Positions 1 through 39,864 of a stretch of 41,123 nt of DNA are shown piece by piece. Positions within the stretch are counted from its first letter, which is position 1. The number at the start of each line of letters is the position of its first letter. A program made the position numbers and the translations under genes. The stretch is from a virus (taxonomy: Duplodnaviria > Heunggongvirae > Uroviricota > Caudoviricetes). Under the pieces are notes generated by a model. The model was not told the origin of the DNA, ran no database searches, and saw nothing but the letters and a program-made list of their open reading frames with translations. Where the stretch lies: IMG/VR virus record IMGVR_UViG_2565956719_000013; one strand, 5' to 3'.

Positions 1-516
1 ATGAAATTTAAAAAATGTCTTCTGCCTGTGGCAATGTTAGCGTCATTCACTCTGGCAGGATGCCAGTCAAATGCTGATGATCATGCCGCCGATGTTTATC
101 AAACCGATCAACTGAATACCAAACAAGAAACTAAAACCGTTAATATTATTTCCATTCTTCCCGCAAAAGTTGCCGTAGACAACGCCCAAAATAAACGGAA
201 CGCACAAGCCTTCGGCGCGCTTATTGGCGCTGTCGCTGGCGGTGTTATCGGCCACAACGTCGGGTCTGGCAGCAATTCCGGAACGACGGCAGGTGCAGTT
301 GGCGGCGGAGCTGTAGGCGCGGCAGCGGGTTCTATGGTGAATGATAAAACCTTAGTGGAAGGTGTTTCTTTAACATATAAGGAAGGCACCAAAGTGTATA
401 CCTCCACCCAGGTGGGTAAAGAGTGCCAGTTTACGACAGGTTTAGCCGTTGTTATTACCACGACGTATAACGAAACGCGTATTCAGCCAAATACCAAATG
501 TCCTGAAAAGAGCTAA
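1..516 (+). CDS. outer-membrane lipoprotein with glycine-zipper segment, function unknown
   Basis: ATG at position 1; signal peptide with lipobox LAGC; Gly/Ala-rich GxxxG run (GALIGAVAGGVIGH...AVGGGAVGAAAG); could be host flank or phage moron. Confidence 0.6.
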   Translation: MKFKKCLLPVAMLASFTLAGCQSNADDHAADVYQTDQLNTKQETKTVNIISILPAKVAVDNAQNKRNAQAFGALIGAVAGGVIGHNVGSGSNSGTTAGAVGGGAVGAAAGSMVNDKTLVEGVSLTYKEGTKVYTSTQVGKECQFTTGLAVVITTTYNETRIQPNTKCPEKS

Positions 517-6515: not shown

Positions 6516-6619
6516 GTTAAATCTCCAGATAGTCGCAGCACCCGTTGCGCCGCATATCTGGTTATTCTATTACCTGAAAAACCACATATGGATAGAAAGA
6601 CTGTAAATACGAATAGATA

Positions 6620-7014: not shown

Positions 7015-7104
7015 ATTTACATCGCACTCCTCTTGTGCCATAGTAATCGGGCACTGGCAAAATCCAGTGCCGGGATTGGCGTCCCGGGTTACTAAGTGGC
7101 GCAT

Positions 7105-7127
7105 ACCACGCCAGACGTGGTTTTTTT
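7105..7127 (+). terminator. intrinsic terminator/attenuator in antirepressor leader
   Basis: stem ACCACG (7105-7110) / CGTGGT (7116-7121), loop CCAGA, T7 tract to 7127. Confidence 0.55.
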
Positions 7128-7283
7128 ATGCGTTAAGCACAGCTATATCCGAATTATGGTGGGCTGGGCAGGGGTCCGAAAGGACGCCGGTACCACTTAG
7201 GCCGGTACGCCAACCTTGTCCAGTTCACCACCAGTAATTGGCGTTGCGGTGGTGATTAAAATCACTAAGTGGAGATAACCACC

Positions 7284-7994
7284 ATGGCTAATGCTCAAAC
7301 TGCCATCTTCAAATTTGAATCTGTTAACCCTATCCGTTCCATCATTATCGATGGCCAACCATGGTTTGTAGCCCAAGACGTTTGTAGTGCGCTGCGTATC
7401 CAAAACGTCACCCAAGCACTTGAAAAACTGGATGATGATGAAAGGTCTATGTTCAACATAGGGCATGAACATCGTGCAATTTTTGACAGCCGAGTAAAAG
7501 AGATCAACATTATCTCCGAGTCAGGCCTCTACACACTGATCCTCCGCTGCCGCGACGCAGTGACACCAGGCACTATCCCCTACCGCTTTCGTAAATGGGT
7601 TACAGGTGAGGTTCTTCCTCAGATCCGCCGCACCGGAAGTTACATTAAAAACTCGCTCCCGCAGGAAGAACGCATAAAGATGGTTGCCGACCAGGTAGCC
7701 AACGCCACGGCGTCAGCAGTAATGCAGGCGATGAAGATAGAGAACAAAACCTACAGTGCCCCACTGAAGCCCGGCTACCGTAGCCTGATTCATTCGCCGT
7801 CTGGTGTTCTCGGCCTGACGGAGAACTCACTGCTGATGAATCTGCTGAACCAGTTACAGGACGACGGGCACGACGTATCGGGCGCGGCGGCGGAGCTGAC
7901 CACCATGTTCTGCTACATCGTCGGTGTGAGCAAATGCCTGCGTGATATCCAGACCCACGCGGAGTACATCAACGACAAGGCAGGGTTCTTCTGA
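7284..7994 (+). CDS. antirepressor with N-terminal Bro-N domain
   Basis: ATG 7284 with AAGTGGAG RBS; N-terminus FKFESVNPIRSIIIDGQPWFVAQDVCSAL matches Bro-N pattern; C-terminal domain paralogous to 6711..6968 product. Confidence 0.7.
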   Translation: MANAQTAIFKFESVNPIRSIIIDGQPWFVAQDVCSALRIQNVTQALEKLDDDERSMFNIGHEHRAIFDSRVKEINIISESGLYTLILRCRDAVTPGTIPYRFRKWVTGEVLPQIRRTGSYIKNSLPQEERIKMVADQVANATASAVMQAMKIENKTYSAPLKPGYRSLIHSPSGVLGLTENSLLMNLLNQLQDDGHDVSGAAAELTTMFCYIVGVSKCLRDIQTHAEYINDKAGFF

Positions 7995-8870: not shown

Positions 8871-9032
8871 ATGAAAAAAGCATTTGCTGCACTGTTCGTT
8901 TTGTTGTCTCTGGTAGCTTCAACTCAGGCCTTTGCCGGTCGTTGTCAGCACGACAGCGATACCGCCGCTGACGGCTCCCGCTGCGGTGGGCGTTCTGCGG
9001 ATTCCCGCCCGGGCGGCGGTGGCATTCGTTAA
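8871..9032 (+). CDS. small secreted Cys/Gly-rich peptide, hypothetical
   Basis: ATG 8871; signal peptide MKKAFAALFVLLSLVASTQAFA; 53 aa; weak RBS. Confidence 0.3.
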   Translation: MKKAFAALFVLLSLVASTQAFAGRCQHDSDTAADGSRCGGRSADSRPGGGGIR

Positions 9033-9054
9033 AAACAAGGCCGCGAAAGCGGCC
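9031..9054 (-). terminator. intrinsic terminator ending the leftward late operon
   Basis: GGCCGC-GAAA-GCGGCC hairpin (9039-9054) with T-tract in minus orientation (A5 at 9031-9035 on + strand). Confidence 0.5.
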
Positions 9055-9055
9055 T

Positions 9056-9067
9056 GTGACATGTCAC
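9056..9067. repeat. 12-bp palindrome GTGACATGTCAC (copy 2)
   Basis: perfect palindrome overlapping TGA stop (9064-9066) of 9064..9360, 1 bp from terminator hairpin. Confidence 0.9.
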
Positions 9068-9360
9068 GTTCCTTTTCTGAATGATAGCCGTTCGAAAAAT
9101 GATGACATTCCACCGCAGACAATAGCAAAGATGATCCCACCAAAGAAGAGAAGGCCAGCCTGCCACCACTCCCACCGCCATACATCCACAGCACCAACCA
9201 TACCAACAATCGCTCCAACAAATGGAATATAGCTCACGATGAAAGCAATGGGGGCTGCAATTATCCAGTGCAATCCCCACCATGATTCAAGCCCAGCCAT
9301 AATTGCTGCCAACTGAAAAAGGCCAACGACGATATAAACAATGAATCCTATCGCTTGCAT
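9064..9360 (-). CDS. small multi-pass membrane protein, hypothetical
   Basis: AGGTGA RBS; 98 aa, 3-4 hydrophobic helices, Trp-rich; last gene of late operon. Confidence 0.55.
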   Translation of the reverse strand: MQAIGFIVYIVVGLFQLAAIMAGLESWWGLHWIIAAPIAFIVSYIPFVGAIVGMVGAVDVWRWEWWQAGLLFFGGIIFAIVCGGMSSFFERLSFRKGT

Positions 9361-16893: not shown

Positions 16894-17357
16894 TATTTTC
16901 TCTCCATGTGAAATCTGTGGAAATTAAGACCAAGAGCACCATAAGGCGCGGCTTCTTCAAGCCTGAATCCAAGCCAGTGCAGCCATGCTTTGGCAACATG
17001 GTTTCGCTCGTCGACGTAGTTTTCCAGGCGCGGATAAACTGCCAGCATCTGCTGCAATACAGGGCGGCAGTGGCGAAGAAATGTCTTCTGATATTTTTCA
17101 ATACGGCTGGTTCCTACCAGCCAGGGCGTACCATTGCCACCGATCATTGACGCCGGAGATACGCCAAACATGGTTACCAGTTCTCCGTTCGCAAATCCTG
17201 ACCAGGCCATAGTCGCAGTGCGAAGACCAACACGCAGCGCATCTTCGGTAGTCATCAGCGATACCGCATACAGTTCGTCAATATCAGCCTGACGAACATC
17301 CGGCAAAATCATCTGAAGATGCTCTTCGGTAGCGGGAATAATTTGAACGTCAATCAT
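16893..17357 (-). CDS. hypothetical virion/assembly protein
   Basis: GGGGGA RBS; 154 aa; position equivalent to T7 gp13/gp14. Confidence 0.45.
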   Translation of the reverse strand: MIDVQIIPATEEHLQMILPDVRQADIDELYAVSLMTTEDALRVGLRTATMAWSGFANGELVTMFGVSPASMIGGNGTPWLVGTSRIEKYQKTFLRHCRPVLQQMLAVYPRLENYVDERNHVAKAWLHWLGFRLEEAAPYGALGLNFHRFHMERK

Positions 17358-19828
17358 CAGAATCCCCCAACAGTAAGGCGAGGAATAACGGCAAGAACAG
17401 ACAGCGGCAACGGGTCAAGCTGACGGATTTTTACACGTCCGTTTTTGCCCCAGTTACTGTCCAGTTTCACTTCTACTTTTCCGGTAGCATCATCAACAGG
17501 ATCATCGTAGAACTCGAATTCACGCTGTGGATATTCGTACCATTTACCGCCGGGCGTAGTCGCCCAGATGCCGCGACTGGCATTCACAACCAGAGTAACG
17601 GACGGGATCACCTGTTTTTTGTCCAGCAGCGTTTCCTGTCCGTTAATGTTGATATCCAGTGTTTCGAATTCAGCAGTTATTGGCAGGCCGATGTGCACTA
17701 CAGCCCCCGGTGATTCCAGCGTGACGGCACCTCCGGAAACCACTTTCTGTGGTTCCACGTTCGCATCAGAGAGAATGTTTACGGTCTGGCCTTCAAGATG
17801 AGACAAGCCGCCAAATGTCCGGCGCGCCATCTGCCAGTTCGTGGTGGCCACATTCCTGAGGGATGGCGGGACGTTCCTGTTAGCACGAACCACTACAGCG
17901 GTATTGCTGGTTACAGAAATAATGTCGCAACGTAATTCTTTTGACACCTCATCGCCAGTATCAGGATCAGTTCCGGTATAAGGGAACTGTAGTTGCGCGC
18001 CGACATCACTACTGGTGAAGTACGCACCACCAGAAACACTGATTGTATATTCCGCGCGGTAATCCCATTCGCCAGAACCACCAGTGATAATCATCGTTCT
18101 GTCAGACGTATTTCTTCCATCATAGCTAAGGCCAGAATCAACAAAGAAAGCATCTTCATCGCTGGTAAATAAACGGCTGGACAGTCGCTCGATGTATCTC
18201 ACTGTTTGCCCGTTAACGGTTCGGTTAACGACGAAATACACCGCATCTTCATTGCCTTCGCTGATACTGCATGTGCTTTCATATTTTCCGGTACTGGATT
18301 GTGGTGCCCATGCAAAAACCTGCTGATCACGCAAATAGGTCATCACCAGTAATTTACCGTCATCACGGATGCAGAAGGCGCTGGAGTAAGGGACTATTGA
18401 GAAGCACCAGTCAACAATGCTGTGCTTCTGAAAAAGATGATTGGCAAGGATAGTAAGGTCGTTCCCCTGATAGCCGTCAACATCGAATGAGTAGGCCAGA
18501 TCACGGACAACACTGCCTTTCTCCTGGACGAACAGAGCAATATTCGCCACGGCAATTGGTGGGACATTGCTCGAGCCATTTGATCCCTGAGAGCTGAATG
18601 CAAATGATGATGGGGTAAGCACTTTGTTCTGGTCGCCAGTGATGACGTACTCACCTCCGGAAGTCAGCGCCACCAGCGAACCAACATCAATCAGGTGACG
18701 GATCTCATTAACCTGACGCCCGGCATAGGTGTAGATAATTCTGTCGTCATCCTGCGTAGGATTGCTTTTGCCAAAATCCTTATAATCCCCGGTACGGCTG
18801 GCCCAGATAGTCTGAGGAAACGCAGTCGATGCGGCGAAGTAAAGACGTTGTTGATAATAAACAACAGTGCCAGGATAACCATTAACACTGTTCCAGGCAT
18901 ATTTAGCCCATTTATAGCTGGCATTATCCTCGCCAACTACCTGCGAAGGGATATAGGAAATCACCTCGGCAGTTGCAGTAGTTCCATTTGCAGCAGTGAT
19001 ACGGGCAATGCCAAAACCACTGTGCAGATATTCCCACTCAATGCCAGTATCATCATCACCGGATCCGCCCCAGCCATCCCATGATGTGCCTTCTGTATGC
19101 GAAGGGCGCAAAGTACCTGTTTTGCCTGCTGTAACGGCGCGATAGTAGTTACTGTCTGCACGGCGAATATCGCCAATCGACGTACTCTTACTGGTTTCCC
19201 ATACCGGCACAGAATCCACTGCAGGCTGTTCCAGATAGAACAATTTGCCTACCTGCTCCGCGCCAAAAATAGAGGCGCTTGCCGTTAGCGTAATTGTCCC
19301 GGTGCTGGCGCTGGCATAAACCGTCACTGACTCGTCAATATTGATATCTTCAAATGGCCCGTTCTTCGTTACCACATCAACCAGTTGCCAGTTGTCATGC
19401 GCATAGCGGCGCAACTCTTTCGGCGGGTATGCCGGATGAACCAGCGTAAGCACGTCTGCGCTTTGCGTGAATTTAATTCGGAACAGATCGGCTTCAGTAT
19501 ATGGCGTGGAAATTTCATAAATAACATTGCTGCTGTTCAGCACCAACGCACCATCTTTGATAACGCGCATGTACTGGTGTCCGAACTCCAGAGCATAAGT
19601 CTGAACCGTCGAGAACTGGAACGGGATCAGGCGGCATTTCCGATTTGGGTATTTGGCGGCACCGACAAAACGCGTACCAGGTCGATTCTCAACTCCGCCA
19701 TACTGCCGCACGATAAAGTTATCGCACTTGCGCAATGCCACCTGGTACTTCGCCATGTCAATACGACCGTACAACGACGGTCCAATCTCACCACCGGCAA
19801 AGCTGGGCTGGATCCAACTGATAGCCAT
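17357..19828 (-). CDS. tail tubular protein B-like (nozzle)
   Basis: 823 aa; GAGGT RBS; N-terminal FAGGEIGPSLYGR resembles T7 gp12 N-terminus; follows adaptor-like gene. Confidence 0.55.
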   Translation of the reverse strand: MAISWIQPSFAGGEIGPSLYGRIDMAKYQVALRKCDNFIVRQYGGVENRPGTRFVGAAKYPNRKCRLIPFQFSTVQTYALEFGHQYMRVIKDGALVLNSSNVIYEISTPYTEADLFRIKFTQSADVLTLVHPAYPPKELRRYAHDNWQLVDVVTKNGPFEDINIDESVTVYASASTGTITLTASASIFGAEQVGKLFYLEQPAVDSVPVWETSKSTSIGDIRRADSNYYRAVTAGKTGTLRPSHTEGTSWDGWGGSGDDDTGIEWEYLHSGFGIARITAANGTTATAEVISYIPSQVVGEDNASYKWAKYAWNSVNGYPGTVVYYQQRLYFAASTAFPQTIWASRTGDYKDFGKSNPTQDDDRIIYTYAGRQVNEIRHLIDVGSLVALTSGGEYVITGDQNKVLTPSSFAFSSQGSNGSSNVPPIAVANIALFVQEKGSVVRDLAYSFDVDGYQGNDLTILANHLFQKHSIVDWCFSIVPYSSAFCIRDDGKLLVMTYLRDQQVFAWAPQSSTGKYESTCSISEGNEDAVYFVVNRTVNGQTVRYIERLSSRLFTSDEDAFFVDSGLSYDGRNTSDRTMIITGGSGEWDYRAEYTISVSGGAYFTSSDVGAQLQFPYTGTDPDTGDEVSKELRCDIISVTSNTAVVVRANRNVPPSLRNVATTNWQMARRTFGGLSHLEGQTVNILSDANVEPQKVVSGGAVTLESPGAVVHIGLPITAEFETLDININGQETLLDKKQVIPSVTLVVNASRGIWATTPGGKWYEYPQREFEFYDDPVDDATGKVEVKLDSNWGKNGRVKIRQLDPLPLSVLAVIPRLTVGGF

Positions 19829-20433
19829 CAGGACAACCTCGCAATGGTAAACTCGTCAACCGGTGGCAGTGGTTCCTGTGATTCATTCTGGCTATGCGAG
19901 CCAGCACTAAGAATCACGCGATTGTACATATTGAGGGCAAACGTACCGAGGTCTGCATTCCCAGTCAGCGCCATGTTAATAGCTGCCGCAAGACGCCAGG
20001 CCAACGCCTCCATAAAAATGGCATCAAACATGTTCACATCTGAAACGCGAGAGACATACTTGAGCCATGCCTGCGGCTGGTCTGTGTAGATCAACTTTCC
20101 TGTTCCGTTGGTGTCTGCACCAACTTCGTACTGAACGCGCATTGCTGCTGTTGGATTGCGTACACCAGGAAGCATAATTTCAGTAATGCGCAGACAATCG
20201 GACGGGTACTGATACGCATATTCCCAGTCAGGCGGTGGATTGCTCGTATCTGCAAGCGCCACGCGTTTGGTAGCAAAGTTCCAGTCAAAATCAGAAAGCA
20301 CAGCATCACGGCAGGCCTCAAAGTGCAGCGAACATTCCCCCGCTTCCTTGCTGGCTTCCGTCAGGCTGTTAATGCTGCGGCTATTGCCAATATTGGACAG
20401 CGCACGATTGCAGATCTCTACTACAGAGGCCAT
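19828..20433 (-). CDS. tail tubular protein A-like (adaptor)
   Basis: 201 aa, size and position of T7 gp11; GGGGGTGA RBS; ATGA overlap with next gene. Confidence 0.5.
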   Translation of the reverse strand: MASVVEICNRALSNIGNSRSINSLTEASKEAGECSLHFEACRDAVLSDFDWNFATKRVALADTSNPPPDWEYAYQYPSDCLRITEIMLPGVRNPTAAMRVQYEVGADTNGTGKLIYTDQPQAWLKYVSRVSDVNMFDAIFMEALAWRLAAAINMALTGNADLGTFALNMYNRVILSAGSHSQNESQEPLPPVDEFTIARLS

Positions 20434-25534: not shown

Positions 25535-25624
25535 ATCAATGACTCCGTACGCAATTAAATTATTACCAATTTAACCACATATGATTTATTTATCGTAGAT
25601 AGTTGACATTTAACGCACGAATTA

Positions 25625-25961: not shown

Positions 25962-26038
25962 GTGGCATTAGCTCAGTCGGACAGAGCAACCGCCTTCTAA
26001 GCGGTTGGTCGCAGGTTCGAATCCTGCATGCCACGCCA
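25962..26038 (+). tRNA. tRNA-Arg (anticodon UCU)
   Basis: 77 nt; acceptor stem GTGGCAT/ATGCCAC, anticodon stem ACCGC/GCGGT with loop CTTCTAA, T-arm GCAGG-TTCGAAT-CCTGC, discriminator G, CCA encoded. Confidence 0.85.
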
Positions 26039-26241: not shown

Positions 26242-26613
26242 ATGAGTGAAAAAGACATTGAATCTGAAATTCAGGCTAAAGGTTTAGCCGCGCCGCGCGT
26301 TACGCCAGACCATATCGAGAGCATTATTGCTCAGGAGGCATATTTCACAGCAGAAGATGGTGCCTTTGGCGTAGCCATAAAAGCGAAACATACTGGCGGA
26401 GAGGTAAACTACCAGCCGCACGAATCACTTTCTCTGCTGACGTTCTGCGTCCTGGTGCTGCGCAACGGCTTCACCGTCACCGGAGAGAGCGCCTGTGCAA
26501 GCCCGGAAAACTTTGATGCAGAAATTGGTCGGAAGATTGCCCGACAGAATGCTGTAAACAAAATCTGGATGCTTGAAGGTTACTTGCTGAAGCAGAAGTT
26601 AAGCGAGCAATAA
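26242..26613 (+). CDS. Gp49-like small phage protein (N4 Gp49 / Sf6 gp66 family, from memory)
   Basis: AAGGTGAG RBS; 123 aa; C-terminal pattern FDAEIGRKIARQNAVNKIWMLEGYLL recalled for this family. Confidence 0.45.
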   Translation: MSEKDIESEIQAKGLAAPRVTPDHIESIIAQEAYFTAEDGAFGVAIKAKHTGGEVNYQPHESLSLLTFCVLVLRNGFTVTGESACASPENFDAEIGRKIARQNAVNKIWMLEGYLLKQKLSEQ

Positions 26614-26617
26614 CACC

Positions 26618-26629
26618 GTGACATATCAC
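26618..26629. repeat. near-palindrome GTGACATATCAC (copy 3, one mismatch)
   Basis: 5 bp after Gp49-like stop and 4 bp before terminator hairpin. Confidence 0.8.
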
Positions 26630-26633
26630 AAAC

Positions 26634-26660
26634 AGCCAGCCTATGAGCTGGCTTTGTTTT
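26634..26660. terminator. terminator between convergent Gp49-like gene and large terminase
   Basis: AGCCAGC (26634-26640) / GCTGGCT (26647-26653), loop CTATGA, then TTTGTTTT. Confidence 0.55.
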
Positions 26661-26703: not shown

Positions 26704-28179
26704 TTAAGCATAGGGATCGTAATCTGTAATGGCCCTTCCCTGCTGGCTTTGCTGTCCTGGTATATTTATGCGTTTCGAGACCGGGAAAGCAAACGTCAGC
26801 AGTAGCGCATCGCCTTTACCCGGCGAACGCCCAAGCCGCTCCTTGATATCTTCCTTCGGTTCGATAACGATTTTACCGTCCACTCGAACTTTGTACTCTG
26901 CCGCCGACAGGTCGTCCGCTGTTTCCTGGTCATCCAGCATGCCGCCCAGCCTCAGCCATGTCTTGCATGAGTTGAACATCTCCCCACGCTTGTTGAGCAT
27001 CTGCGGGTCAGTAGACGCGCCACCGAACGGAACAAGTTGCCATGTACGACCCCAGCCGTCACCGATTGACTTCAAACCGGTTCCGTAACCGAAGTCGATG
27101 AACACCGCGTCAGCCTGATACTGGTCTTCAAAGTCAGCGATACGCTTCGCCATAATCAGATCGTCGGTAGTCTTGTTGCCAGTCCACAGCACCTTACTGT
27201 GTAGCCCCTGCCGCAGGTATATCACCGCGTCATCAACGCCTGAATATGCCGGGTCAACACCGATTATCACCGGAGCATGTGCCACCTGCGCAGCGGTTAC
27301 CACCCGTTTCATTGCCTCGTCAGTAAGACCGGTAGGGATAAACTGCAATTCAGATGCATCAGGGAATATGCCACGCACACGGATTTTAACGAAGTCGCTA
27401 TCTTCCCCGTAGTCATCAACCCATTTCTGCAACTGCTGTTTGTTGGTGCCTTCCACCGTCCTGCTGTCAATCTGCGCAGTTTTCCAGCGGTGTTTGTATT
27501 TGCGGAAACATTCACGGAAACGCCCGGTGTTACGTGTAGGGTTTCCGAAAGCCACCCAGATAATCTCAGTGTCTTCGTCCGTTAGCGCACCCTCGGCAAC
27601 TTCCCACACCAGATCCGCAATGTTCGACGCTTCATCAAATACCACGATGATGCGTTTACGCTCGTTGTGTAGTCCGGCGAATGCCTCAGTGTTGTGCTCA
27701 GACCAGGGGATTGCGTCAGCTCGCCACCGCTTGTCGTGCCCAGGGTCATTGCTGTACATCGCGGTAGCGGTACAGGTAAACCAGTCTTTCGTGATAGCAA
27801 GGTTTGACCACTTGATAATTTCCGGCCAGGTCTTCGTTCGTAGCTGGTTGTCGGTGTTGGCGGTCACCACGACCTTACAATCCTCGCAAGTGGACATGCC
27901 CCAGTTGATCAGCATTGAGATGAATGCGGATTTACCAATACCGTGACCAGAAGCACGTGCCAGCATAAGCGGCTGATATCGCGTCTCTGGATTCTGCAGG
28001 TGATCACGTATCTCTCGGAACGCATCAGCCTGCCACTGACGTGGGCCGGTGGCATGTGCCAGTTCAGTCCCCTCTTCCCCCCATGGGAACGCATAGAGGG
28101 CATAGCCAAGCGGATCGTGAGTGAACCCTGCAATATCCTCGATTAACTGCTCTTCAGGAGATAACGCTGTATCTGTCAC
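26704..28179 (-). CDS. terminase large subunit
   Basis: 491 aa; Walker A-like ARASGHGIGKS and Walker B-like IIVVFDEAS; ATGA overlap with small subunit. Confidence 0.85.
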   Translation of the reverse strand: MTDTALSPEEQLIEDIAGFTHDPLGYALYAFPWGEEGTELAHATGPRQWQADAFREIRDHLQNPETRYQPLMLARASGHGIGKSAFISMLINWGMSTCEDCKVVVTANTDNQLRTKTWPEIIKWSNLAITKDWFTCTATAMYSNDPGHDKRWRADAIPWSEHNTEAFAGLHNERKRIIVVFDEASNIADLVWEVAEGALTDEDTEIIWVAFGNPTRNTGRFRECFRKYKHRWKTAQIDSRTVEGTNKQQLQKWVDDYGEDSDFVKIRVRGIFPDASELQFIPTGLTDEAMKRVVTAAQVAHAPVIIGVDPAYSGVDDAVIYLRQGLHSKVLWTGNKTTDDLIMAKRIADFEDQYQADAVFIDFGYGTGLKSIGDGWGRTWQLVPFGGASTDPQMLNKRGEMFNSCKTWLRLGGMLDDQETADDLSAAEYKVRVDGKIVIEPKEDIKERLGRSPGKGDALLLTFAFPVSKRINIPGQQSQQGRAITDYDPYA

Positions 28180-28775
28180 TGATTGCCATCCTGACGTTCT
28201 TTCAGTCTCTTCCTGGCTGCCGCTATGCGATCAGCAATTGTCACATTCACATTAACATCCAGGCGTTCTTTGAATGCGTTGACGTCGACGTGCTTACCAA
28301 TCAGTTCGAGGTTCTTCACCTTGTCAGGCCATTTAATTTTTTTGAGGATGCCAACCAGCTCTTTCTCGTCTCCACGGCCTTCGAACATGTCGGCCAGTTC
28401 GAAACCTGTCAGGTACTGCCGCCAGACCTTAGGCCATTCCGAGACCGGCTTGATGCTCATATCGTCGTTGAGAATGTCAATCACGTCCATCTGGTCGATC
28501 TCCACCAGGCGCATGAGAACGTAATCAGCACTGACGCGCATTCGTTTGTTGCGCTCCTCCATCAACTCGGCAATCCGTTTTTGAATGCGTTCATCGCGCA
28601 TCATGACACTGGCTTTAACTGCCGCTGTATTTGGGGAGAATCCTGCGTTAATCGCTGCCTGAGTCTGGTTTTCAGGCGTTTTGATGTATGACTGGCAATA
28701 AGCCTCCTGCATTGCTGTTAGTGGCTTAAATTGCGTTGATTTGCGTTTATAGGTTTTAGGTTCAGCAGGCATCAT
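28176..28775 (-). CDS. terminase small subunit
   Basis: start moved to ATGATG 28775-28770 (MMPAEPK...); immediately upstream of large terminase. Confidence 0.65.
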   Translation of the reverse strand: MMPAEPKTYKRKSTQFKPLTAMQEAYCQSYIKTPENQTQAAINAGFSPNTAAVKASVMMRDERIQKRIAELMEERNKRMRVSADYVLMRLVEIDQMDVIDILNDDMSIKPVSEWPKVWRQYLTGFELADMFEGRGDEKELVGILKKIKWPDKVKNLELIGKHVDVNAFKERLDVNVNVTIADRIAAARKRLKERQDGNQ

Positions 28776-28782
28776 AACCACC

Positions 28783-28814
28783 GTGGTAATAGTTACCGTT
28801 GTGGTAATAGTACC
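28783..28814. repeat. two direct copies of GTGGTAATAGT(T)ACC upstream of terS
   Basis: 28783-28797 and 28801-28814; each is a GGTAA-N3/4-TACC inverted arrangement. Confidence 0.8.
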
Positions 28815-28818
28815 ATGC

Positions 28819-28844
28819 AAAATAAAGCCGCCATAGTTGGCGGC
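28819..28844 (-). terminator. intrinsic terminator immediately upstream of terS
   Basis: GCCGCC (28827-28832) / GGCGGC (28839-28844), loop ATAGTT; minus-strand T-tract UUUAUUUU (28826-28819). Confidence 0.6.
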
Positions 28845-28885: not shown

Positions 28886-28897
28886 GTGACATGTCAC
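28886..28897. repeat. 12-bp palindrome GTGACATGTCAC (copy 1)
   Basis: perfect palindrome overlapping TGA stop (28894-28896) of the Cys-rich gene, 41 bp before terminator. Confidence 0.9.
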
Positions 28898-29232
28898 ACT
28901 ATTAATTTCGTTTCATGCCAGCCTTTAGTCACCCAGCATTGCGAGTCACCATTACACGGGCATGAATTAACGGGAACTCTCTCGCCGCACTTACCGCAAA
29001 GTTTTCTGCTGATCGATTTTATACGCCCGCGCACACGTGCATCATCCTGGCGGATCAGCAGCGCGATGTACTCGGCCATTTCATAGGGATCGCGACCAGG
29101 GCGCCGGGCGGCGCAGTTCCGCTCAAGCATTTCAATTTCCTGAGCATCAAGCACAATCTCCAGCTTACGCACACCAGATGCAGCTTGTCTGGCTCTCTGA
29201 GCGGCTTTGCGCTCTGCTGCTGATTTAGCCAT
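28894..29232 (-). CDS. basic protein with C-terminal Cys cluster (zinc-finger-like); candidate regulator
   Basis: ATG 29232 (ORF-track start 29235 is TTG); Arg/Ala-rich N-terminus, CGKCGERVPVNSCPCNGDSQC; last gene before terS. Confidence 0.5.
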   Translation of the reverse strand: MAKSAAERKAAQRARQAASGVRKLEIVLDAQEIEMLERNCAARRPGRDPYEMAEYIALLIRQDDARVRGRIKSISRKLCGKCGERVPVNSCPCNGDSQCWVTKGWHETKLIV

Positions 29233-32521: not shown

Positions 32522-32568
32522 TTAAAAACCACATAAGACACGAAATCAATAGATTTTAGAACATTTTA

Positions 32569-34969: not shown

Positions 34970-35554
34970 ATGAAAAGTATCCAGGACGTCCGCAGGCAAA
35001 ATCTCAACGACTTGATCGACCGTGAATTCAATGGTGTTCAGACGCGGATGGCAGAAAAACTTGGAACTCAGGCAAATCTGGTAAACCGCTGGGCTCTTGG
35101 CAAGAAGGTTATCGGCGACCAGGTTGCGCGAAAAATTGAAGCTGCCGCCAATAAACCCCGTAACTGGCTTGATATTGATCGCTCGCTTTCTCAGGAGGGT
35201 TTTCAGCCTGTCGGCCCGAGCGATATAGGTCAGCTGGCGGCTCACAACCTGGAACGCTGGATGAGCGAAAGCCGCGACCTTTCAACGCAGGGAAAACTAC
35301 ACCGCGCATCCGGCGTCGCCCAGGTGACAATCAGCCGCCTGTTAAACAATGAGGTCAGCGTTTCCATTTCCACCCTGGAGAATGTTGCATCCGCATTCGG
35401 GCGTCACGGCTATGAACTACTGATTCACCCGCACGACCCTGCGACTATCAACTATGACCGCTCACGCTACGCATTGTTACCCGAAACCGAGAAAGCAAAG
35501 ATCGAAAGTTACATTGAATTTGTCATCAACCAGAACGAAAAAAACAAACAATAA
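34970..35554 (+). CDS. CI-like repressor with two HTH domains, no S24 peptidase domain
   Basis: 194 aa; HTH-like segments QTRMAEKLGTQANLVNRW and SGVAQVTISRLLNNEVSVSISTLENVASAF; no Ser-Lys protease region; poor RBS; 7-codon upstream mini-ORF ends in ATGA at the start. Confidence 0.65.
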   Translation: MKSIQDVRRQNLNDLIDREFNGVQTRMAEKLGTQANLVNRWALGKKVIGDQVARKIEAAANKPRNWLDIDRSLSQEGFQPVGPSDIGQLAAHNLERWMSESRDLSTQGKLHRASGVAQVTISRLLNNEVSVSISTLENVASAFGRHGYELLIHPHDPATINYDRSRYALLPETEKAKIESYIEFVINQNEKNKQ

Positions 35555-38265: not shown

Positions 38266-38565
38266 GTGAGAAAGTTAAGCCGACTTGAAAAATATAACAT
38301 GAACAAGGTTTCAATGCGCAGCCATTCAAAGATTGTCGCCGTTACTCCTGCGGCGATAGAGATCGAAAAACGCGCGATTGAAAGAGAGAAAAAAGGGCAG
38401 TTCCGCATTGCCGCTCACCTTTGGCTTCAGTGTATGGATGTTGCTTCTGGTGATGTTGAGCGTGCAAGGATCGCGGTTCGCAGGGACCAATGTATCACAA
38501 AAGGTAACGGCCTTCGCCGTGGAGACTATAGCGGTATAGGATGTTGCGGGGTGGTTTATGACTAA
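38266..38565 (+). CDS. small hypothetical protein, possible regulator
   Basis: GTG start with GAGAGGG RBS or internal ATG 38314; start uncertain. Confidence 0.35.
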   Translation: MRKLSRLEKYNMNKVSMRSHSKIVAVTPAAIEIEKRAIEREKKGQFRIAAHLWLQCMDVASGDVERARIAVRRDQCITKGNGLRRGDYSGIGCCGVVYD

Positions 38566-39208: not shown

Positions 39209-39864
39209 ACCTATATCAACGCATCAATGGCGCTGACTGGTGCAATATCTTCGTCGTCGGCGATCTGCATGGGTGCTACACACTGCTGATGAACGAACTC
39301 GACAAAGTTTCATTCGACCCGGCGCGCGATTTGCTTATTTCCGTTGGTGACCTTGTTGACCGCGGCGCTGAAAACGTCGAATGCCTGGATTTGATTACTA
39401 TGCCGTGGTTCCGAGCTGTTCGTGGCAACCATGAGCAGATGATGCTGGATGCACTGGTCAACGGCGGAAGTTTCGGACATTGGATGTCAAACGGCGGTGG
39501 ATGGTGGCACCAACTTGATTCTGAGCAGGATGTGCAACTCAAATACCTTCTGCCAAAGGTTACCAACCTCCCGATGATTATCGAACTGGTTACCGGCAAT
39601 AAGAAGGTCGTCATCTGCCACGCAGACTACCCGCACAACGAATACGCATTCGATAAGCCAGTACCGGAAGAAATGGTGATATGGAATCGTGAGCGGGTTA
39701 GCGACGCGCAGGACGGTATTGTCTCGGAGATAACCGGTGCCGATTTGTTCATCTTCGGTCATACGCCAGCACATCACCCACTGGTGTATGCAAACCAAAT
39801 GTACATCGACACCGGCGCAGTGTTCTGCGGAAATCTGACGCTTACCAAAGTCCAGGAAGGATAG
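39205..39864 (+). CDS. Ser/Thr protein phosphatase (metallophosphoesterase)
   Basis: GDLHG, GDLVDRG and GNHE motifs; ATGA overlap with methyltransferase stop. Confidence 0.85.

Follow-up and report, generated by a model that had tools for sequence, protein, structure and literature searches.

A predicted RHH and zinc-knuckle protein of epsilon15/phiV10-type phages and a candidate operator over its own stop codon

The window, by which we mean the whole analysed stretch of 41,123 nucleotides, is DNA of an epsilon15/phiV10-type prophage (Uetakevirus) located between yfgI and guaA of E. coli. Gene order was read from the PGAP annotation of a prophage 97% identical to the window, which on the minus strand places cro-like, DnaT-like O-type and replication protein P genes ahead of a terminator, followed by DUF1064, Ea22-like, DUF551 and ASCH genes, a gene encoding a protein of 112 aa, a further terminator, terS and terL. 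The 112-aa open reading frame, picked out earlier by a reading of the sequence alone, was confirmed as a real gene read from the minus strand (Table 1). It forms the distal end of a cro-O-P-nin-like operon ahead of the late packaging genes, which is the position of Q in lambda, and in every Uetakevirus examined this position is held by a gene of the same family. The ATG of the 112-aa gene shares bases with the stop codon of the preceding ASCH-like gene (ATGGCTAA), an overlap that suggests translational coupling of the two genes within one operon. The next gene downstream is indeed terS, as the sequence-only reading had proposed, but "immediately before" is too strong a description, as the two genes are separated by a 121-nt gap with a terminator and two operators; comparison with epsilon15 places the terS start at ATG 28772, with an alternative ATG at 28775. 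Genes of the Q, Ogr or Mor/C type were found neither in the PGAP annotation of the 97% identical prophage nor in the curated epsilon15 RefSeq record, in agreement with the earlier statement that no Q-like antiterminator is recognizable. Both the relative's annotation and the epsilon15 record do contain a PerC-family activator gene (gp31 in epsilon15, labelled "transcriptional activator"), which is another candidate for the regulation of phage genes.

Table 1 Features of the window and positions of GTGAC-NN-GTCAC sites in related phages.
Feature	Position	Strand	Remarks
CDS, 112-aa protein (predicted RHH + zinc ribbon)	28894..29232	minus	ATG at 29232, TGA stop 28896-28894
terS (small terminase)	28176..28772	minus	Pfam Terminase_2 3e-29, phrog_51; first gene past junction
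Intrinsic terminator, GCCGCC-AACT-ATGGCGGC then TTTATTTT	28819..28844	minus	Between 112-aa gene and terS, 38 nt past Site A
Two TTACC-N5-GGTAA operators	28775..28807		28793-28807 exact, 28775-28789 one mismatch; abut terS start
Exact TTACC-N5-GGTAA	6620, 7000, 8066, 25625, 28793, 32507, 32569, 34900, 35612, 35674		
One-mismatch TTACC-N5-GGTAA	28775, 34515, 34852		
TATGTGGTT modules	6580-6588, 25573-25581, 32527-32535	minus	
HTH repressor gene	34970..35554		Flanked by TTACC-N5-GGTAA
PerC-family transcriptional activator gene	38266..38565	plus	Recombination/excision operon
Site A, GTGACATGTCAC palindrome	28886..28897		Contains TGA stop of 112-aa gene; candidate operator
Site B, GTGACATATCAC, one mismatch	26618..26629		Between terL and convergent N4-gp49/Sf6-gp66-family gene
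Site C, exact GTGACATGTCAC	9056..9067		Covers TGA of ORF 9064..9360 (minus), gp18-like, ahead of tailspike region
Bidirectional intrinsic terminator	26634..26653		Adjoins Site B, after it on plus strand
Intrinsic terminator, AGGCCGC-TTTC-GCGGCCT then TGTTTTT	9030..9055	minus	1 nt past Site C
isrK Hfq-binding RNA	7051-7127	plus	Rfam
C4 antisense RNA	7152-7235	plus	Rfam
BRO-N domain gene	7269..7994		
tRNA	25962-26035	plus	tRNA-Arg in relative's PGAP annotation
N4-gp49/Sf6-gp66-family gene	26242-26613	plus	
epsilon15, 3 exact sites	2142, 19517, 39612		After terL; over gp18 stop; over gp49 stop
SPN1S, 3 sites			Positions orthologous to those of epsilon15 and the window (26618, 9056, 28886)
N15, 3 sites in 44.2 kb examined			Gene 46 stop; within repA; ant-operon leader
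phiKO2, 3 sites			Each N15 site at orthologous place
K233, 3 sites			Two exactly 19 nt ahead of a start codon, one being terS
Chlobot, 1 site in 46.5 kb			Gene-adjacent one only

A profile search assigned residues 1-111 of the protein to phrog_536 (E=2.4e-54), a family carried in databases under the generic name "transcriptional regulator", and gave no match to Pfam Ogr_Delta. Its direct homologues include epsilon15 gp49, the gene 46 product of N15 (gp46) and phiKO2 gp45, with identities of 77-94% to Uetakevirus proteins (77% to epsilon15 gp49 by tblastn) and 37% to N15 gp46; epsilon15 gp49 is itself annotated just as similar to N15 gp46. The members are alike in length, in conserved residues (R8, R13, E54, L59, C79, C82, P87, G95 and C99) and in a palindrome at the stop codon. 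A word-indexed search retrieved 776 homologues, every one named "hypothetical", and an exhaustive search gave 157 cluster representatives; phiV10, P2-like Yersinia phages and Vibrio K233-type phages also encode members. Longer homologues carried only terminase or Ea22 fragments as clues to function and are probably chimeric gene calls, and a PADLOC search gave no match of the 112-aa protein to a defence system. In Chlobot (L073, PP925838.1, about 17147-17487) the family gene is intact and encodes 113 aa (MAKSATEHKADQRAKQ...), and the record, which looks mis-annotated, has two entries in its place, a "UmuD-like protein" and a "transcriptional regulator" of 141 nt.

The Arg/Ala-rich N-terminus described in the sequence-only reading is present (AERKAAQRARQAAS), as are both halves of the C-terminal CxxC...CxC cluster (C79-x2-C82 and C91-x-C93, with a further cysteine at C99), but an alignment of 58 homologues showed that C93 is specific to a clade and not shared by the whole family. 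C79 and C82 are invariant in this alignment, a third cysteine near position 91 is general, and C99 is conserved in at least 90% of the sequences, as are E54, L59, P87 and G95; R8 and R13 are also conserved, and a PY..EY..LIR.D helix is kept in the family. The AlphaFold2 model based on the 58 sequences (pLDDT 90.7) comprised a helix (5-18), an extended segment (19-29), two further helices (30-42 and 52-74), a Cys knuckle (75-99) and a terminal helix (100-108). According to the model, the N-terminal half adopts the beta-strand, helix, helix fold of the ribbon-helix-helix (RHH; CopG/Arc/MetJ) superfamily, and the protein is predicted to be an RHH domain fused to a zinc knuckle. Pfam returned no family for the 112-aa protein at E<=1, and no sequence profile of the RHH superfamily in Pfam or NCBIfam was matched above its curated threshold; NCBIfam gave a weak match to the RHH protein YbfE (E=0.055), and homologues gave scattered weak Pfam matches to RHH_5 (0.013), RepB-RCR_reg (0.028) and RHH_1 (0.071). 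The N-terminal basic extension likens the family to RHH repressors (R1 CopB/RepA2, which is Pfam RepB-RCR_reg, E. coli YbfE, Arc, Mnt, MetJ, CopG and omega), to which its similarity stays below family thresholds, and from which it differs by the additional C-terminal four-cysteine zinc knuckle and helix and by a putative operator at the 3' end of the gene instead of at a promoter. The 112-aa product is very probably a nucleic-acid-binding regulator.

For the C-terminal half, a profile weakly matched TraR and YbiI, zinc fingers that bind RNA polymerase (E about 0.03; hhalign probability 40%), and the three best PDB sequence matches, likewise weak (E 0.03-0.04), were all from the TraR/DksA/YbiI family. 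These C4 zinc fingers may have in common with the 112-aa protein the order of helix, CxxCG..(L/I)P...G...C knuckle and helix, but the second CxxC pair of the DksA/TraR finger (CxxC-x17-CxxC) is missing from the family, and Pfam zf-dskA_traR was neither matched by the 112-aa protein nor among the families listed for the 58 members. The sequence-only reading had instead compared the protein to small zinc-finger late activators of the P2 Ogr/P4 Delta class. The resemblance extends to a small, basic phage protein with four cysteines, but the class assignment does not hold: there is no Pfam match at E<=1, the family spacing of C-x2-C-x8-C-x7-C departs from the C-x2-C-x22-C-x4-C of the Ogr/Delta zinc finger, and the N-terminal half is predicted to be RHH. 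Membership in either the Ogr/Delta or the Q group was rejected after finding no sequence support in Pfam, NCBIfam or PDB.

The terminator between the 112-aa gene and terS has an orthologous stem-loop annotated at 39646-39672 in the epsilon15 record, and beyond it a pair of TTACC-N5-GGTAA operators abuts the terS start. These operators are of the prophage-repressor type and are not sites of the RHH and zinc protein. In the window the motif was counted 10 times without a mismatch, where 0.02 would be expected; copies flank the HTH repressor gene and precede terS, the portal operon, the tailspike, the antirepressor region and the nin-like genes. The epsilon15 record annotates the orthologous sites as bound by a repressor, the one at terS (12..27) being labelled "repressor". 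Given this annotation and the distribution of the operators, a single repressor appears to directly control both early and late operons. The TATGTGGTT modules, previously suggested as a place to look for binding by the 112-aa protein, were found to accompany these repressor operators instead: each follows a TTACC-N5-GGTAA operator at a distance of about 38 nt and is itself followed by another (half-)operator, a layout that is kept in epsilon15 (2990; variants at 19895 and 35906). The modules may belong to the promoter or to the 5' leader. The sole late operon without a TATGTGGTT module is terS, where the distance from terminator to ATG is 46 nt and where no convincing promoter was found in the upstream sequence. 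Elsewhere in the late region, the isrK and C4 RNAs lie directly upstream of the BRO-N domain gene, and this set is a P1/N15-type RNA-controlled antirepressor cassette.

The stop codon of the 112-aa gene had been noted to lie inside a palindrome, which was confirmed for the TGA within GTGACATGTCAC (Site A), a conserved cis element. The window contains two exact copies of GTGACATGTCAC (Sites A and C) and one with a single mismatch (Site B), against a chance expectation of 0.0025 for the exact 12-mer in 41 kb. The orthologue of Site B is an exact GTGACATGTCAC in both epsilon15 (2142) and SPN1S (2174), and that of Site C is an exact site in epsilon15 (19517) and SPN1S (19662), followed by a terminator in each. 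Every Uetakevirus site precedes an intrinsic terminator by 1-38 nt when read along the gene whose stop codon comes before it, and stop codon, palindrome and terminator follow one another in this order at 3/3 sites, Site B with its reverse-strand unit among them. Of the minus-strand terminators in the late region, the strongest three are precisely those adjoining the palindromes. The idea that palindrome and terminator form one repeated cassette was rejected, as the flanks and the terminator sequences are unrelated. At Site B, the tRNA and the N4-gp49/Sf6-gp66-family gene are found in the interval between terL and the portal operon, both on the opposite strand, and together look like a moron insertion that ends at the site.

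Outside the window, GTGAC-NN-GTCAC accompanies the family in five backbones (Uetakevirus, lambdoid phage, N15/phiKO2, P2-like prophages and Vibrio K233). It is located at -15 to +40 of the stop codon in 62 of 69 family-gene loci, 56 of them in the identical register G-TGA-C, many of the loci being close kin and the pattern being seen in at least four separate clades; in total, 77 sites were counted in 1.135 Mb against 1.08 expected. The half-sites are constant and the centre varies (AT, TG, CA, AC, AG, GG, CG), and the linkage of site and gene persists in proteins that are only 30-45% identical, where GTGACAGGTCAC, GTGACGGGTCAC or GTGACGCGTCAC is found at the stops of members from P2-like and other prophages. 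In TL-2011b, PAT1, Kp4865-1 and Omnitron the palindrome at the 3' end of the gene is unchanged while the DNA beyond, even the next gene, differs, and the 3'-end site is also present in epsilon15, SPN1S, Chlobot, N15, phiKO2 and P2-like prophages. GTGACTGGTCAC covers the stop codon of N15 gene 46, and in the lambdoid phage Chlobot it lies 7 nt past the stop. Another copy of GTGACTGGTCAC is found within the repA coding region at the same place in N15 (L011, 33237) and phiKO2 (L071, 10664), with substitutions in the flanks; it may, among other possibilities, belong to an internal promoter or be origin-related.

Invariant half-sites around a freely varying centre point to a dimeric protein on double-stranded DNA. 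An RNA hairpin was considered and rejected, as the invariant arms show no covariation, the centre varies and no more than 2-4 nt would be left for the loop; the local RNA fold near the palindrome is dominated by the terminator. A general role as a promoter -35 element was also rejected, since -10-like hexamers at a spacing of 17-18 nt accompany the palindrome in three Uetakevirus contexts but not in N15, Chlobot, the P2-like clade and K233. As the backbones have essentially just this gene in common, its protein is the obvious binder, and the co-occurrence of gene and palindrome makes GTGAC-NN-GTCAC almost certainly the operator of the RHH and zinc protein. In the SPN1S/SPN9TCW/SPC32H version of the protein (SPN1S, L072, 38348-38656), which begins MATTTTRRQNLLELELVL, the N-terminal basic helix is missing and the three palindromes are kept; the basic helix is thus not needed for site maintenance, and the DNA is probably read by the RHH sheet. 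We regard the palindrome, as the presumed operator of the family, as the main new result: a predicted RHH regulator with an added zinc knuckle appears to have its operator at its own stop codon, recurring at terminators. An operator over the regulator's own stop codon in five unrelated phage backbones is an unusual regulatory layout, and identical half-sites despite proteins that are only 30% identical suggest a strong shared constraint. Literature searches, in which coverage of subscription journals was incomplete, found nothing on the palindrome or on the function of gp46/gp49, and nothing relevant on late regulation in epsilon15, phiV10 and SPC32H.

The arrangement resembles that of lambda Q in position, in that a DNA site, a strong terminator and the late genes come after the last gene of the early-right operon. 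Q shows no similarity to the family in sequence or fold, however, and has a single loading site, whereas here each terminator has its own site and one of the three units is in the wrong orientation. Family members also coexist with separate Q-like genes in N15 (gene 40), phiKO2 (gp38) and Chlobot (CDS0013), and the P2-like prophages L047 and L067 encode a family member together with an Ogr homologue (60% identity to P2 Ogr). This coexistence shows that the family is not a generic late activator. From the proposal of a candidate late-gene regulator there remain a very probable nucleic-acid-binding regulator and the Q position, and a late-gene role peculiar to Uetakeviruses is possible.

In our view the protein is best read as a regulator acting at specific sites to gate transcription where operons end, and it may either block read-through or promote it. 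We tentatively propose a dimeric, sequence-specific DNA-binding protein with a 3'-end operator that acts as a gatekeeper at operon ends, including the early-to-terS junction, and consider this plausible rather than probable. The protein, consisting of basic helix, RHH core, four-cysteine zinc knuckle and short C-terminal helix, would act as a dimer, and the founding copy of GTGAC-NN-GTCAC would be the one at the 3' end of its own gene, so that gene and operator would make up a portable two-part module at the distal end of early operons. The protein would be the last product of the cro-O-P-nin-like operon and would then occupy three sites, at its own gene before terS, at the gp18-like ORF before the tailspike region and at the reverse-strand moron gene facing terL. 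The bound protein would obstruct RNA polymerase just ahead of the terminator, which would tighten the insulation of the early operon from terS-terL, and would limit its own expression, as suggested by the stop codon inside the site; the late operons would then rely on their own repressor-controlled promoters. The gatekeeper is favoured by the constant placement of a site at the 3' end of the family gene, whatever lies beyond, and by the three orthologous sites kept in the window, epsilon15 and SPN1S. RHH transcription factors are mostly repressors. Read-through at Site B would give only antisense terL RNA, which favours insulation over antitermination, and the repressor operators of the other late operons point the same way. 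On the other hand, the closeness of sites and terminators may partly reflect the scarcity of non-coding DNA in phage genomes, and outside the Uetakeviruses many sites have no nearby terminator. Instead, these immediately precede the ribosome-binding site of the following gene (N15 gene 47, Chlobot CDS0050, K233 terS and gene 0032). In the ant-operon leader, one N15/phiKO2 site precedes a -10-like hexamer, TAAAAT, by 4 nt, an arrangement that resembles ordinary promoter control. As TGA is embedded in GTGAC, the stop-codon register could be an evolutionary accident, and a small RHH dimer might not be able to stop RNA polymerase.

A positive late switch, analogous to Q without being homologous to it, is a somewhat unlikely alternative, in which the protein, having accumulated by the end of the early operon, would bind the palindrome before the terminator and allow polymerase to continue into terS-terL and from Site C into the tailspike and lysis genes, either by modifying the passing polymerase or by starting transcription from a promoter with its -35 (GTGACA) inside the palindrome. 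Such a switch would suit the Q position of the gene in all examined Uetakeviruses, the lack of annotated Q, Ogr or Mor/C-type genes in those checked, the strong terminator between the gene and terS, the want of a convincing promoter ahead of terS, and the weak TraR/YbiI matches of the C-terminal half. It is also favoured by terS itself, which, having no TATGTGGTT-type promoter module and so short a distance from terminator to ATG, may need read-through for expression. The promoter variant draws on -10-like hexamers found 17-18 nt past GTGACA in spacers that cannot be aligned (CATGAT in the window, TAAATT in PAT1/epsilon15, TAACAT in Omnitron), but this spacing fails outside the Uetakevirus clade, the GTGACA-18-CATGAT of the window is weak, and an RHH dimer on a -35 element would normally repress. 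Further against a positive switch are the coexistence with Q and Ogr described above, the Site B unit, where read-through at the end of a reverse-strand gene would be harmful, and the two K233 sites only 19 nt ahead of a start codon. The varied site contexts among phage groups would suit an ordinary repressor or activator that acts on several accessory targets and has no special late role, which we regard as unlikely; it would tune whatever adjoins its sites, such as the antirepressor operon and repA of N15-like phages or the gene after its own, and the proximity to terminators in Uetakeviruses would be incidental, the free non-coding DNA lying there. The ant-leader site abutting TAAAAT in N15/phiKO2, the sites preceding LexA-box promoters in Kp4865-1 and P2-like prophages and the resemblance of the N-terminal domain to CopB/YbfE-type RHH repressors are all in line with this. 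It leaves unexplained, though, why site and 3' end of the gene go together irrespective of what comes downstream, and why the order relative to terminators is conserved at three Uetakevirus sites in three diverged genomes.

The remaining readings are less probable again. In one, which we consider distinctly unlikely, the protein would be a DNA-loaded elongation or termination factor, with the RHH head reading the site and the TraR-like zinc module contacting the passing polymerase to switch marked terminators on or off; if true, it would replace Q as the early-to-late switch in Uetakeviruses, and the cassette of gene and stop-codon site would be a self-contained transcription-boundary device spreading between phage lineages. 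In the other, which seems highly unlikely, the protein would mark or organize phage DNA through a few dispersed palindromes, as MatP, centromere-binding proteins or packaging accessory factors do. This is prompted by the half-sites GTGAC...GTCAC, which equal those of matS, the target of MatP in enterobacteria and vibrios, and MatP is likewise an RHH protein with few dispersed sites, the comparison being with binding that for the phage family is presumed. The matS site is a 13-mer with a 3-bp centre (E. coli consensus GTGACRNYGTCAC, PMC6907758), one position longer than the 12-mer of the family, whose centre measures 2 bp. Unlike the family, MatP lacks a zinc knuckle and has a four-helix bundle and a coiled coil, and comparison of the two showed no sequence similarity (hhalign probability 0.2%). 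The presence of about three dispersed sites per genome, one of them beside the gene, recalls ParB/parS-type systems, and terS-terL has a site on either side in Uetakeviruses, while in K233 a site precedes terS by 19 nt, but Chlobot has a single site, the N15 and phiKO2 sites are away from cos and terS, and the phages concerned differ in packaging and replication strategies. The match in half-sites may be a coincidence or a shared constraint, and the likeness merits understanding. The hosts of the phages seen (Escherichia, Salmonella, Klebsiella, Yersinia, Vibrio, Aeromonas and Pectobacterium) are presumably all MatP-bearing bacteria.

For the epsilon15/phiV10-type phages, which have no recognizable Q, Ogr or Mor/C, the 112-aa protein offers a concrete candidate for late-gene timing with a defined, if presumed, DNA target. 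A widespread "hypothetical" family thereby gains a likely operator of 12 bp, found in Uetakeviruses at three operon boundaries in each genome. phiV10 serves as a reporter phage for the detection of O157:H7, and its late control is of practical value through this use.

In Kp4865-1 (L007, after 2790) and in L020, L052 and L062, representing two separate clades, the palindrome is followed by a promoter with a LexA-box-like CTGT-N8-ACAG, which in Kp4865-1 comes with a UmuD-like gene. The N-terminal domain weakly resembles YbfE, a LexA-regulated protein, and a link of the family to SOS-controlled genes is possible.
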